DNA of 64,000 nt, taken from NCBI GenBank assembly GCA_965223505.1, contig CBDCWP010000033.1:1-64000 (forward strand), given 5' to 3'. Of this stretch, positions 11,443 to 16,762 are shown one piece after another (position 1 is the stretch's first letter; every line of letters starts with the position of its first letter). Below the pieces are notes generated by a model. That model ran no database searches. It was not told the origin of the DNA and saw only the letters and a program-made list of their open reading frames with translations. This DNA is from Planctomycetota bacterium. GTDB taxonomy: Bacteria > Planctomycetota > PLA2 > JAEUHO01. Position numbers and translations under genes: made by a program.

Positions 11443-13098
11443 ATGCGACGCACGCTCGTTCTGCTCGTTCTCGCGCTCTGTTGGACCGGCTGCGGCGACG
11501 AGACGCAGCGCGAACCCGTACGCGCGACCCGAGCGAAGCCGCTGGTGTACGCCACGTCGTACCCGCTCGCGTACTTCGCGGAGCGCATCGGCGGCGATCT
11601 CGTCGAGGTCGTGTGCCCCGTTCCCCCGGGCGAAGATCCCGCGACCTGGATGCCGGACGCGAAGACGATCGCGGCGTACCAGCGCGCCGACCTCATCCTC
11701 GTGAACGGCGCCGGGTACGAGCAGTGGCTGGACAAGGTGAGCCTGCCCAAGGAGCGCGTCTTCGACACGACCGCACACCTCGAAGCACTCATCAAGATCG
11801 AGAACGCGACGACGCACAGCCACGGCGGCAAGACGCACACGCACGAGGGCGTCAACCCCCACACGTGGCTCGACTTCACCTCGGCGTCGTCCCAGGCCGA
11901 CGCGGTCCGCGCGAGGATGGCGACGTTGACTCCCGCGGAACACGCGTCGGCGCTCGAGTCGCGCTCCGTCGAGCTGCGCGAGGATCTGCTGGCCCTCTAC
12001 GACCGCCTCTCCCTGATGCCGCACGTACGCGTCTGGGCGTCGCACCCGTCGTACGACTACCTCGCACGAGCACACCGATGGACGCTTCACAACGCGCACA
12101 TCGATCCGGACGCGGACCCCGACGACGTGCCGTGGGACGCGTTGCGGCAACGCATCGAGCGCCATCCCGCGACGCACATGCTCTGGGAGCGAGAACCCCG
12201 CGAGGAGCTGGCGGCGCGCATCGACGAGGAGCTGGGCCTCGAAGGCATCGTCGTCTCGACCTGCGAAACGAAACCGGACGGCGAAGAGACGTATCTCACG
12301 GTCATGACTGCGAACGTCGGGCGGCTGTTGAACGCGTTGCCGTTGGCCGAGCTCCCCGAAGAGGTCGTCGACGACGGACTCGACGACGCCCGCACGGTCG
12401 AGCAGCTCCTCGCCGTTCTCACGAGCGGCAACGAGGACGAACGCGAGGACGCCGTGCGCGTGCTGGCGCTGCGCCTCGACGCGGCGGCCTTGGAACGGGA
12501 CGGAGCGAAGCTGATCGCGCCGCTCACGGCCGCGCTGGGCGACGCGTCCGCCGATGTGACGGCCGGCGCCGCGAGCATCCTGGCCCGCATGGGTACGACG
12601 GCCGCGCCCGCCGTCGCGCCGCTCACCAAGGCACTAGAGCGCGACGATCCGATGGTGCGCGCGCGCGTCGCGACGGCGCTCCAGGAGATCGGCCCTGCGG
12701 CCGGATCGGCAACGAGCGCCCTCGTGGCGTTGTTGAACGATGCGACGGAGGTCGTGCGCATCAACGCGGCCGGCGCGTTGATCAAGATCGATCCGGATCC
12801 GGCGGTCGCCCTGACGCCTCTGACAACGTCCCTGCGCGGCGACGAGAGCGACGAGGTGCGCATCCATGCGGCGCTCGCGCTGGGCGAGCTGGGCGCGTCG
12901 GGCGGGCCCGCCGTGGGTGCGCTCGAGGCGGCGCTCACCGACGATCAGAGCGAGGTCCGCGCGGCCGCCGCCTGGGCGCTGGGCAACATCGGCGCGCCCG
13001 CGCGCGGCACGGTCGACGCGCTGAAGGAGCTGTTGAAGGACGAGCTGTTCGAGGTGCGAAGCGCCGCCCGCCGCGCGCTCGACCGCCTGGAAAAGTAG
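11443..13098 (+). CDS. ZnuA/TroA-type metal-binding lipoprotein fused to C-terminal HEAT repeats
   Basis: Lipobox-like WTGC; VPPGEDP, NGAGYEQWL, His-rich THSHGGKTHTH, NPHTWLD; about 6 HEAT-like repeats (VRxxAAxALGxIG). Confidence 0.85.
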   Translation: MRRTLVLLVLALCWTGCGDETQREPVRATRAKPLVYATSYPLAYFAERIGGDLVEVVCPVPPGEDPATWMPDAKTIAAYQRADLILVNGAGYEQWLDKVSLPKERVFDTTAHLEALIKIENATTHSHGGKTHTHEGVNPHTWLDFTSASSQADAVRARMATLTPAEHASALESRSVELREDLLALYDRLSLMPHVRVWASHPSYDYLARAHRWTLHNAHIDPDADPDDVPWDALRQRIERHPATHMLWEREPREELAARIDEELGLEGIVVSTCETKPDGEETYLTVMTANVGRLLNALPLAELPEEVVDDGLDDARTVEQLLAVLTSGNEDEREDAVRVLALRLDAAALERDGAKLIAPLTAALGDASADVTAGAASILARMGTTAAPAVAPLTKALERDDPMVRARVATALQEIGPAAGSATSALVALLNDATEVVRINAAGALIKIDPDPAVALTPLTTSLRGDESDEVRIHAALALGELGASGGPAVGALEAALTDDQSEVRAAAAWALGNIGAPARGTVDALKELLKDELFEVRSAARRALDRLEK

Positions 13099-13149
13099 CG
13101 GCGAGACGGACCGCAGGACCGTCCGTACGCGGCGCTACAACGCGTGGCG

Positions 13150-14157
13150 ATGGCGCTGCGCATGGTCGAGATCTTCCTGCCCGGCCGAGAGGCCGACACG
13201 GTGTCCGCTTCGATGGACGCCGAGCCGCGCGGCGGCCCCTGGACGCACGAGCTCGACGACGGGCGCAAGTGCGTACGCATGCTGCTCGACACCGAAGCCG
13301 CGGGCGACGCCATCGACGACCTCGAGCGCCGCTACGGCTCAACGCCGGGTTTCCGGTTGCTGATCTTCCCGATCCACGCCTCGCTGCCCCGCGCGGAGGA
13401 TCCGGAAGACCTTCCGGCGCACAAACGGCGCGCGACGCGCCACCGGTCCATCAGCCGCGAAGAGCTGTACGCCGAGGTGCAGAAGATGGCGACGCCGAAC
13501 CGCATCTTCTTCGCGACCGTCGTGCTCTCGACCATCGTCGTCGCCGTCGGCCTGTTCCGCGACAACGCGGCCGTGATCATCGGGGCGATGGTGATCGCGC
13601 CTCTGTTGGGTCCCAACGTCGCATTGTCATTGGCCGCGGCGCTGGGCGACCCGGCGATGCTCAAGCGAGGGGTCCAGTCGAACGGCTGGGGTCTCCTGAC
13701 GGCGCTGGCGCTCACGATCCCATTGGGGTACTTCGGCGCCGTGGCGTTGGCCGGTGACGCAGTTCCGGTAGAGATCCTGCGTCGCACGGAAGTGCATTGG
13801 AGCGACATCGTGCTGGCGCTCGCGGCGGGGAGTGCGGGCGCCTTGGCGCTGACGACCGGCGTCGCGAGCTCGCTGGTCGGGGTGATGGTGGCGGTGGCGT
13901 TGCTGCCGCCGACGGCCGTCGTCGGCATGCTCGTCGGCGCGGGGCCGGCGCACTACGACCTGCTGCCCGGCGCGTTGCTGCTCCTCGCGACGAACGTCGT
14001 CTGCGTGAACATCGCCGGAACGGCCACGTTTCGCATTCAGGGCATTCAACCGCGCACCTGGTTCGAGGCCGACCGCGCGACGCGCTCCACGCGGCTCGCG
14101 TTGGTGATCGGGGCCGTCGCGCTCGGCGCGCTGCTGGTGCTCATCGTGCTGCTGTAG
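13150..14157 (+). CDS. TIGR00341/DUF389 family membrane protein
   Basis: DNAAVIIGAMVIAPLLGP and LVGVMVAVALLPP motifs. Confidence 0.9.
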   Translation: MALRMVEIFLPGREADTVSASMDAEPRGGPWTHELDDGRKCVRMLLDTEAAGDAIDDLERRYGSTPGFRLLIFPIHASLPRAEDPEDLPAHKRRATRHRSISREELYAEVQKMATPNRIFFATVVLSTIVVAVGLFRDNAAVIIGAMVIAPLLGPNVALSLAAALGDPAMLKRGVQSNGWGLLTALALTIPLGYFGAVALAGDAVPVEILRRTEVHWSDIVLALAAGSAGALALTTGVASSLVGVMVAVALLPPTAVVGMLVGAGPAHYDLLPGALLLLATNVVCVNIAGTATFRIQGIQPRTWFEADRATRSTRLALVIGAVALGALLVLIVLL

Positions 14158-14168
14158 GCGGGGCGAGG

Positions 14169-15065
14169 CTACCGCGGACGATTGGCGGCAATCAGCTCGG
14201 CCAACAGCGTGAACTCGCGCTTGCGCACCGACGTCTTGCGCCATGCCATGCCGATCGTTCGATATGGTCGCGGCTTCGTGAACGGCAGCGTGACCAACGC
14301 GGGATTCGACCGGGTCTCGGCCTCGATCGCGAGCGACGGCAACAGCGTCACGCCGATGCCCGCCGACACCATCTGCACGAGCGTGCTCAGGCTGCTGGCG
14401 CGCACGTCCGCCACCTCGCTCGAACCTGCCGACCGGCAGATGGCCCACGCCTGATCGCGAAGTCAGTGCCCGTCCTCGAGCAGCAGGAGATCACGCCCGT
14501 CGAGGTCCTGCTCGCGCGCACGCTTTCGTTTCGCGAGCGCGTGGGTGTCGGGAACGGCGAGCACGAAGCAGTCTCGAAAGAGCGCCAAGGGCTCCGCGCC
14601 CACGAGGTCGGCCTCCAACGCGAGCAGGAGCAGGTCGAGGTCGCCGTCCGCGAGCGACCGAACGAGCCGGTCGGTGTGATCCTCGCGAAGGAGGAGTCGC
14701 AGGTCCGGAAAGCGGCGACGAATCGGAGGGATCACACTGGGCAAGAGGTAGGGAGCGATGGTCGGGATCACGCCGAGTCGCAGCGTGCCCGTCAGGGGAC
14801 TGCCGTACGCGCCCGCGGCGTCGACCAGCTCGTCGACCTGCGTCAGGACGCTGCGCGCCTGCTCGATGGCGGTCTCCCCCGCGGCGGTGGGCAACACCTT
14901 GCGTCGGTCGCGCTCGAAGAGCTTCACGCCCAGCACGCGCTCGAGCTGCTGAATCTGGGCGCTGAGCCCGGGCTGCGAGACGAACGCGGCCTCCGCGGCC
15001 TTGCGGAAGTTGCGCTCGTTGCCCACGGCCACGAGGTACTCGAGCTGACGCAGCGTCGGTCGCAT
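14169..15065 (-). CDS. oxyR: OxyR, LysR-family H2O2 sensor, with in-frame TGA (putative Sec201) at the peroxidatic Cys position
   Basis: LysR HTH (NFRKAAEAAFVSQPGLSAQI), GVIPTIAPYLLP, LLLEDGH*LRDQAWAIC, RASSLSTLVQMV; 298 aa if TGA 14463-14465 is read through; divergent from ahpC. Confidence 0.9.
14424..14441 (-). promoter_or_regulatory. Putative bacterial SECIS element of oxyR
   Basis: mRNA AUCUGCC-GGUC-GGCAGGU hairpin; G-containing loop begins 28 nt after the UGA. Confidence 0.75.
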
Positions 15066-15084
15066 TGATAACTCCATATTATCA
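15066..15084. promoter_or_regulatory. Putative OxyR/LysR binding palindrome in the oxyR-ahpC intergenic region
   Basis: TGATAA-N7-TTATCA perfect dyad fitting the LysR T-N11-A pattern, in an AT-rich spacer. Confidence 0.65.
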
Positions 15085-15166
15085 GAACGAGACTGTCTTT
15101 CGATTGGAACGATCAGAGAATTCGCGGAGAGTCACGCGCGTCGAACACCCATCAAGGAGATCCAGC

Positions 15167-15706
15167 ATGTTGACCGTCGGAGACCGCTTCCCCCGCTTCA
15201 AGCTCACGGCCGTCGTTTCCTCGAACACGGCGAACGCGTTCCGGGAGATCGACGAGAGCACGTACGAAGGCGACTGGAAGGTCTACTTCTTCTATCCGAA
15301 GGACTTCACGTTCGTCTGCCCGACGGAGCTCGCCGGGTTCGCGAAGCTCAACGACGACTTCCAGGAGCGTGATGCGCAGCTCATCGGCGGCAGCACCGAC
15401 AGCGATTTCGTGCACCTCGCCTGGCGCAAGGACCACCCCGACCTGCAGAACCTCCCCTATCCGCTGCTCTCCGACATCAAGCGCGAGCTCAGCACGGAGC
15501 TCGGCATCCTCGACGCTGCCGAGGGTGTCTGCATGCGCGCGACCTTCATCGTGGATCCGGACGGGATCATCCGCTTCGTGAGCGTCAACGACGGCAGCGT
15601 CGGTCGCAACCCGGCCGAGGTCCTGCGCGTCCTGGACGCCCTGCAGACCGACGAGCTGTGCGCCTGCAACTGGCGCAAGGGCGAAGAGACGCTGCAGATC
15701 GCATAG
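15167..15706 (+). CDS. ahpC: Alkyl hydroperoxide reductase C (2-Cys peroxiredoxin)
   Basis: FYPKDFTFVCPTE, GRN, LQTDELCACNW; RBS AAGGAG. Confidence 0.96.
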   Translation: MLTVGDRFPRFKLTAVVSSNTANAFREIDESTYEGDWKVYFFYPKDFTFVCPTELAGFAKLNDDFQERDAQLIGGSTDSDFVHLAWRKDHPDLQNLPYPLLSDIKRELSTELGILDAAEGVCMRATFIVDPDGIIRFVSVNDGSVGRNPAEVLRVLDALQTDELCACNWRKGEETLQIA

Positions 15707-15751: not shown

Positions 15752-16306
15752 ATGAGCATCGCCGTACTCAAGGACCGCCTCCCGGCGTTCGCCAAGGATG
15801 TGCGCCTGAACCTGGGCGCGCTCGCGGACACGGAGAGCCTCACCCCGCAGCAGCTGTGGGGCACGTTGCTTTGCGCCGCCGCGTCGGCGCGCAACGCCGA
15901 GGTTCTGAAGGCCGTCGCCGAGGAGGCGCGCATCCACCTGGACGACGACGCTTTCGCGGCGGCGCGCGCGGCCGCGTCGATCATGGCGATGAACAACGTG
16001 TACTACCGCTTCGTGCATCACGTCGAAAACGACGTGTACGGCTCGATGCCTGCTCGCCTGCGCATGCAGGTCATCGCGCGGCCCGGCGTGGACAAGCTCG
16101 ACTTCGAGCTCTGGTCGCTGGCCGCGTCGGTCATCCACGGATGCGGCGCGTGCACGAACGCGCACGAGAACAAGGCGCTGCAGCGCGGCGCCTCGCCGGA
16201 GATGGTGCAGGATGTCGCACGCGCGGCGGCGATTCTCCACGCCGCCGCCGTCACGCTCGATGGAGAGGCCGCGCTCGACGGAAGGCCGGCGGCTACGAAC
16301 GCTTAG
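15752..16306 (+). CDS. ahpD: Alkyl hydroperoxidase D
   Basis: AKDVRLNL, MAMNNVYYRF, FELWSLA.S..HGCGAC..AH. Confidence 0.93.
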   Translation: MSIAVLKDRLPAFAKDVRLNLGALADTESLTPQQLWGTLLCAAASARNAEVLKAVAEEARIHLDDDAFAAARAAASIMAMNNVYYRFVHHVENDVYGSMPARLRMQVIARPGVDKLDFELWSLAASVIHGCGACTNAHENKALQRGASPEMVQDVARAAAILHAAAVTLDGEAALDGRPAATNA

Positions 16307-16327: not shown

Positions 16328-16762
16328 ATGTCAGACGTCACGAAGGAACTCAACCTGCTCCTCGCCGACTACCAGGTCTACTACCAGAAGCTCCGCAACT
16401 ACCACTGGAACGTACGCGGACCGCGGTTCTTCGAGCTGCACCTGAAGTTCGAAGAGCTGTACAACGGCGCCGCGCTGAAGGTGGACGAGCTCGCCGAGCG
16501 CGTGCTCGCCCTGGGCGAGAAGCCGTACTCCACGCTCGCGGAGCAGCTCGAGCACGCGCGCCTGTCGGAGGATGCGGGCGACCCCGATGCCGAGGCGATG
16601 GTCCGGAATCTCGTCGGAGACATTGAAACCCTGAACGGCGCGCTGCGTCATACGTCCGAAGCGGCGAGCGGCGCCGGCGACGCGGCCACGATGAACATGC
16701 TGGACGGCATGGCGGACGAACAGGAGAAGACCGCCTGGATGCTGAAGGCGTTCCTTTCGTAG
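16328..16762 (+). CDS. dps: Dps ferritin-like DNA-protection protein
   Basis: NYHWNVRGPRFFELHLKFEELY, DELAERV, EKTAWML. Confidence 0.95.
   Translation: MSDVTKELNLLLADYQVYYQKLRNYHWNVRGPRFFELHLKFEELYNGAALKVDELAERVLALGEKPYSTLAEQLEHARLSEDAGDPDAEAMVRNLVGDIETLNGALRHTSEAASGAGDAATMNMLDGMADEQEKTAWMLKAFLS

Follow-up and report, generated by a model that had tools for sequence, protein, structure and literature searches.

A predicted selenocysteine form of the peroxide sensor OxyR in the Planctomycetota

The closest described relatives of the protein considered here, which is encoded in a stretch of 64,000 nucleotides from the genome of a Planctomycetota bacterium (hereafter the window), are the OxyR transcriptional regulators. 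Those with solved structures, from E. coli (1i69 and 1i6a), P. aeruginosa (4x6g) and C. glutamicum (6g1b and 6g4r), have the same domain architecture and fold as the window protein and the same motif, LLEDGH-x-LRDQA....C, with the partner Cys nine residues past the sensing residue. The T, T, H and R residues of the pocket are common to both, and OxyR genes are likewise found with divergent ahpC, dps or katG-like neighbours. The two differ in that the sensing residue of OxyR is a Cys whereas that of the window protein is encoded by UGA; because this residue is predicted to be selenocysteine (Sec), the switch would be a selenenylsulfide and not a disulfide.

The pocket residues of P. aeruginosa OxyR are given as Thr100, Thr129, His198, Cys199 and Arg270 (R266/270) in PMC7231847, a study of 2020 in which density functional theory was applied to Sec placed in this pocket, and in which oxidation was found to be favoured both kinetically and thermodynamically. 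The paper also notes that no Sec variant of OxyR had come to light by 2020; the genes described below would be natural counterparts of the Sec-OxyR modelled there.

Two other groups of proteins invite comparison. The Sec peroxiredoxins (Prx, TxxU) and glutathione peroxidases (GPX) listed in Table 1 of PMC9312934 likewise have a UGA-encoded Sec in place of the peroxidatic Cys, with Cys/Sec alternation among orthologues and a hairpin after the UGA, but these are enzymes that destroy peroxide, whereas the window protein is a DNA-binding, peroxide-sensing transcription factor. The LysR_Se/HrsM proteins (NF040786; PMC9312934) belong to the LysR family and are linked to selenium, as is the window protein, but they regulate selenium-related genes and are not themselves selenoproteins, unlike the protein predicted here.

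The original prediction knew of no seleno-OxyR, and the literature that we searched, in which subscription journals are only partly covered, agrees with it in reporting neither a Sec-OxyR nor any other Sec-containing transcription factor or regulator. Table 1 of PMC9312934 (2022), presented as a "complete list" and comprising 87 selenoprotein families of prokaryotes, contains no LysR or OxyR and names LysR_Se only as a regulator; OxyR, LysR and HTH are absent from the main text of a 2026 review (PMC13188914), OxyR and LysR are absent from the main text and one supplement of the BSepDB paper (PMC13326102), and PMC8318568 likewise has no OxyR or LysR. The families described in that table and in those parts of the review and of the BSepDB paper either act as enzymes or redox carriers or have no known function, and no transcription factor was found among them. 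The Sec-OxyR therefore appears to be undescribed, and would constitute a novel selenoprotein family nested within a well-known family of regulators.

The oxyR gene and its neighbours

The features of the locus are listed in Table 1. The original prediction had joined two open reading frame fragments, 14463..15077 and 14169..14414, into a single frame broken by one TGA, and had placed this TGA at the codon of the peroxidatic Cys with the resolving Cys nine residues further on; both readings stand. The frame begins with the ATG at 15065, with a second possible ATG start at 15077, and ends with a TAG at 14169-14171; codon 201 is its sole internal stop, and reading through it gives the sequence ..LLLEDGH-U-LRDQAWAIC... 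The TGA is also present in contigs assembled from another sample of that study, which match positions 14150-14492 with 0 differences, this comparison being one of contigs and not of raw reads, and the full-length matching run may be the assembly's own source.

Table 1. Positions of the features at the oxyR locus, and of the hairpin classes relative to the UGA (U of UGA = nt 1)
Feature	Position	Strand	Remarks
oxyR, 298 codons + TAG stop	15065..14169	minus	one internal UGA; Pfam HTH_1 + LysR_substrate
LysR-type HTH DNA-binding domain, residues 5-64	14874..15053	minus	Pfam PF00126, E = 2.3e-21
LysR substrate-binding (regulatory) domain, residues 90-293	14187..14798	minus	Pfam PF03466, E = 3.6e-44
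UGA codon 201, proposed selenocysteine	14463..14465	minus	in the alignment column of E. coli OxyR Cys199
UGC codon 210, partner (resolving) Cys, Cys208 equivalent	14436..14438	minus	invariant in aligned forms
SECIS-like hairpin AUCUGCC-GGUC-GGCAGGU	14424..14441	minus	-9.2 kcal/mol; loop GGUC 14431-14434
Palindrome GATAATATGGAGTTATC, candidate OxyR operator half	15067..15083	minus	directly before oxyR start codon
ahpC (peroxiredoxin), divergent from oxyR	15167..15706	plus	Pfam AhpC-TSA, E = 1.7e-35
ahpD-like alkylhydroperoxidase (CMD family)	15752..16306	plus	Pfam CMD, E = 3.1e-14
dps (ferritin-like DNA-protection protein)	16328..16762	plus	Pfam Ferritin, E = 4.3e-26
Class 1 hairpin, GCGCUCGC-CGUGU-GCGAGCGC	loop start nt 24		loops CGUGU, GGUCU, GGCUU; 12 distinct sequences including G001, G027, G321
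Class 2 hairpin, CUGCC-GGUC-GGCAG	loop start nt 32		G000, G003, L101
Class 3, two hairpins, the second CGGCCC-GUG-GGGCCG	loop starts nt 18 and nt 38		five second-family-like sequences

By sequence, fold and gene context this gene encodes an OxyR-type protein. Among NCBIfam models the best match is OxyR (NF008361) at 282.5 bits, which is below the equivalog cut-off of 329, and the runner-up is a non-OxyR model, CynR, at 167; the LysR_Se/HrsM model gives 131 bits against a cut-off of 250, well under the OxyR score. In a sequence search the closest solved structures are OxyR proteins, and the regulatory domain aligns to that of E. coli OxyR with E = 1.2e-47, such that U201 falls on C199 and C210 on C208. 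The column of U201 is identified as that of Cys199 because it is occupied by Cys in 1i6a and by Ser in 1i69, the PDB entry titled as the reduced form of OxyR. Residues T102, T131, H200 and R269 of the regulatory domain match E. coli OxyR in this alignment, and together with position 201 and C210 they are invariant in an alignment of 28 proteins (7 TGA and 21 Cys forms); we take T102, T131, H200, U201 and R269 to be the counterparts of the P. aeruginosa pocket residues. An AlphaFold model of the product has a pLDDT of 90.8, and its top PDB matches are full-length OxyR proteins (6g4r, E = 2e-31; 4x6g, TM 0.80-0.81), with a regulatory domain that is nearer to that of reduced 1i69 (target-normalised TM 0.90-0.91) than to that of oxidised 1i6a (0.86).

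The divergent neighbours of the Sec-oxyR genes are ahpC-ahpD-dps in the window's own genome, ahpC-ahpD in G321, and dps in G003, G001 and G027; in G229 (locus L046, 2-1468, minus strand) the gene is divergent to a heme peroxidase (PF00141, katG-like) and not to ahpC or dps. Upstream of oxyR in the window (15067-15113, minus strand) are the GATAATATGGAGTTATC palindrome and a CCAATCGA box, both of which recur before Sec and Cys orthologues, and elements resembling GATAG-N7-CTATC are found at the same place in G001, G229, G244, G015, G021 and G057. The GATAATATGGAGTTATC and GATAG-N7-CTATC elements presumably resemble the site bound by OxyR in E. coli. From the divergent neighbours and these operator-like palindromes, the oxyR product is predicted to control genes of peroxide defence.

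On its other side, oxyR is convergent with a gene for a DUF389 membrane protein (13144-14157, plus strand), which is preceded by a gene for a ZnuA-type periplasmic metal-binding protein with fused C-terminal HEAT repeats (11575-13098, plus strand). We note that all six genes ending between 13098 and 16762 – znuA-HEAT, DUF389, oxyR, ahpC, ahpD and dps – end in TAG, whereas long open frames across this genome mostly end in TGA.

Recurrence and decoding of the in-frame TGA

Searching with the read-through protein through the window's family, its class and a 401-genome sample of the phylum yielded 38 loci that were inspected codon by codon, a set which leaves out eight weaker matches without an internal stop. 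The homologues alternate between Cys and TGA at exactly the codon where the original prediction had proposed to look for such an interchange: seven of the 38, in three families, have TGA at the Cys199-equivalent codon and the remaining 31 have TGC or TGT, and the second Cys (Cys210) is kept in all 38. Four of the TGA forms represent four genera of the window's family (the window's own genome, G000, together with G003, G001 and G027, whose proteins are 61-66% identical to the window protein), two are from a second family (G229 and G244; 55-56% identity), and one is from a third (G321; 43% identity). All seven are free of other internal stops, a second TGA at residue 296 in G027 having the appearance of the normal stop, and each of the seven genomes has one OxyR-like match. 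The 401-genome sample by itself contains TGA in 6 of 46 matches. A further search of two other Sec-holding families produced no new Sec cases, with OxyR matches in 2 of 11 genomes of f23 (both TGA) and in 4 of 8 genomes of f55 (one TGA), and a related-locus search of genome contigs gave six distant relatives with 39-48% identity.

The same arrangement is found in metagenomes. A degenerate DNA pattern of LEDGH-TGA-xR matched 91 stretches, and of the 80 that were retrieved 17 are contigs with OxyR genes containing an in-frame TGA and 63 are chance matches. Thirteen of the 17 genes are full length in one frame, two are cut by contig ends and two look damaged, leaving 15 that look intact. In the protein database, 43 of the best 120 relatives of residues 1-200 are only 200-236 amino acids long (the window's own and 42 others), and all 42 of the others end in ..L[EQD]DGH; from these protein ends the stop codon is presumably TGA. 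Genes of this type would thus be systematically mis-annotated, being stored as truncated regulators of 200 residues. Some of the Cys-type database relatives (∼61-62% identity) carry the names of Myxococcota or Planctomycetota MAGs, and Sec-OxyR proteins appear to be widespread in environmental bacteria. The recurrence of TGA at this codon is far beyond chance, and because the same codon is TGA in six further species genomes and in 17 metagenome contigs, that of the window is not a lone nonsense mutation.

We consider it very likely that the gene is intact and encodes an OxyR-type sensor of H2O2 whose sensing residue is Sec (U201), inserted by SelB and tRNA-Sec with the aid of a downstream hairpin. 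The original prediction had pointed to tRNA-Sec and SelB as the factors to look for, and the window's own genome, which is 92% complete, has tRNA-Sec (69 bits, above the Rfam cut-off; reported by ARAGORN as SeC with anticodon tca), SelB (336 bits), SelA (507 bits) and SelD (338 bits), the three proteins all scoring above their family cut-offs. Of the five other Sec-OxyR genomes tested, all have tRNA-Sec and four have SelB; no SelB was found in G244 at E ≤ 1e-60, this genome being incomplete. In the phylum sample, 288 of the 401 genomes have a SelA match, G003, G001, G244 and G321 among them, and G229, whose genome is 86% complete, is not among these matches. In the window's own genome we also observe that selA adjoins selD (G000:C8:36851-39232, locus L018) and that selD itself has an in-frame TGA, in the context ..YAGAGG-U-AAKV.. 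(UxxK type), followed by a hairpin CAAGGCC-ACCUUGGA-GGCCUUG with its loop starting at nt 25.

Among the alternatives, the one that survives best is that UGA is read through as a residue other than Sec, either by near-cognate insertion of Trp or Cys or by a general recoding of UGA. The inserted residue cannot be named from sequence alone, and in most Sec forms the UGA is followed by C, a context that is leaky. We nonetheless judge this quite improbable. The only tRNA with a UCA anticodon among the 66 of the window's own genome is tRNA-Sec, its tRNA-Trp having the anticodon CCA, and parts of the Sec machinery are carried by all seven Sec-OxyR genomes. In the window's own genome, long open frames end more often in TGA than in either other stop codon (1376 TGA, 1189 TAG and 144 TAA), from which it follows that UGA is not generally reassigned. 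Moreover, Cys is the only residue with which the codon alternates, and the site is redox-active, a combination that is a hallmark of selenoproteins, and Trp at the sensing position would be expected to abolish sensing.

A still less probable explanation is that the gene is a pseudogene, inactivated by mutation of the Cys codon to a stop and left with a truncated or non-functional regulator. The change of TGC or TGT to TGA requires only one base, and two of the metagenome contigs with the same TGA look damaged: L139 (GC 54%), with TGA at 285 of the oriented sequence, has an upstream frameshift as well as an early stop, lacks a hairpin and looks like either a genuine pseudogene or a poor assembly, while L121 is without the N-terminal part. 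Decay at this codon is therefore possible. Against this, the same lone lesion is present in seven species of three families and in the 15 metagenome genes that look intact, all of them otherwise free of stops and frameshifts, the catalytic residues past the TGA are invariant, and the gene is the sole OxyR-like gene of each genome. In nine pairs, dN/dS downstream of the TGA is about the same as upstream (0.30 downstream and 0.24 upstream in the closest pair), with synonymous rates that are near saturation in the distant pairs; the sequence after the TGA is under purifying selection like the part before it, and the absence of decay in the rest of the gene that the original prediction had remarked upon is borne out. 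Because of the TGA recurrence, the dN/dS values and the single OxyR in each genome, the pseudogene explanation is untenable for the family as a whole, even though single decayed copies exist.

That the gene is instead split, with translation stopping at the UGA and a C-terminal piece made from an internal start, so that the regulator would come in two pieces or consist of a DNA-binding fragment alone, might be proposed from the downstream GTG-initiated open reading frame at 14169..14414 and from the ATG directly after the TGA in G001 and L101, but it is highly implausible, since every Sec form retains the protein sequence LR[DETN]QA....C after the TGA, the TGA is mostly followed by CTN and not by a start codon, and the GTG open reading frame would omit Cys210.

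Hairpins downstream of the UGA

The hairpin that the original prediction described as SECIS-like is present in the window, with its GGUC loop at nt 32-35 (numbered so that nt 1 is the U of UGA), 28 nt past the A of the UGA, but it is not exceptional: the fold of the 71-nt segment does not differ significantly from shuffled sequences (z = -0.99), and within the gene, which is 69% GC, 28 of 276 windows are equal or better. An Rfam search returned no SECIS family and only a chance miRNA match (E = 1.2). In the oxyR genes that we examined, whose GC content is 62-78%, hairpins of this strength occur frequently; because the background is so GC-rich, a hairpin alone is weak evidence. As the window hairpin is not significant, we have therefore put weight on the comparison of Sec with Cys forms and on covariation.

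A perfect hairpin of ≤ -6.6 kcal/mol with its loop starting at nt 15-42 is found in 19 of 21 distinct Sec sequences. The median for the Sec sequences is -10.3 kcal/mol, compared to -5.3 kcal/mol at the same place in 31 Cys forms (Mann-Whitney p = 6e-5, a value which overstates the contrast because the sequences are related), and a good hairpin occurs at this place in 7 of 29 Cys forms. The hairpin of the window is also found in G003 and in the metagenome locus L101, with an A-U stem pair of the window replaced by G-C in L101.

The Sec forms can be sorted into three hairpin classes (Table 1). In class 1, 87.5% of cells are paired and two pairs show compensatory changes; the covariation score is reached by 0 of 500 shuffles and control pairings slid along the alignment are at most 63.5% paired, whereas Cys forms pair only 2-6 of the 8 class 1 positions. 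Conservation of the hairpin, which had been proposed as a check on the prediction, thus has a mixed outcome: hairpins with compensatory changes are present in the Sec relatives, but their distance from the UGA varies by clade and no single SECIS conserved across the Sec forms was found. The bSECISearch rule includes a G in the first two letters of the loop, and one hairpin class lacks it. Loops containing GGUC or GU presumably resemble the loop of the E. coli fdhF SECIS. Taken as candidate working SECIS elements, the hairpins are SECIS-compatible, a reading that is mildly supported by the covariation.

The predicted switch and the history of Cys and Sec forms

The mechanism that we envisage is modelled on that of Cys-OxyR. 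H2O2 would oxidise the selenolate of Sec201 to a selenenic acid, which would react with Cys210 to form a selenenylsulfide; this would switch the regulatory domain and convert the tetramer to its activating form. The activated Sec-OxyR would then turn on the divergent ahpC-ahpD-dps promoter together with the rest of the regulon, and cellular thiol reductases would reset the Se-S switch. Under selenium shortage, translation would be expected to end at codon 201, giving a DNA-binding fragment of 200 residues.

A more far-reaching interpretation, which we regard as speculative and rather unlikely, is that Sec-OxyR is a natural selenium-based redox-switch regulator that arose at least two to three times from Cys-OxyR and has made the peroxide regulon selenium-dependent. 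If this were true, the full-length sensor made when selenium is available would be a fast Se-S switch that resists over-oxidation, any such kinetic advantage being one that Sec might confer, and the selenium-free 200-residue fragment could sit on operators as a competitor that cannot be induced. Sec-OxyR also suggests a connection between the supply of selenium and the response to oxidative stress. The Cys and Sec forms of OxyR would offer a natural pair in which the exchange has been made in a signalling switch and not in a catalyst, and which allows one to ask what selenium buys a sensor, whether in rate, in resistance to over-oxidation or in speed of reset.

The Sec forms occupy three places in a maximum likelihood tree built from the 38 proteins. 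The four Sec forms of the window's family cluster together (support 85/76), as does the Sec pair of the second family (100/100), and G321 pairs with a Cys form from the family to which it belongs (100/100). At least two changes between Cys and Sec are forced by well-supported branches, and there are three in the best tree. The differing positions of the hairpins fit with repeated Cys/Sec switches, although two hairpin classes are present within the group formed by the window's own family. Finally, G021 (locus L028), a Cys form of the window's family, has a hairpin, GCUCGCCG-CGUG-CGGCGAGC, of -14.9 kcal/mol at the place where the Sec forms have theirs, and this may be the relic of a reversion from Sec to Cys.
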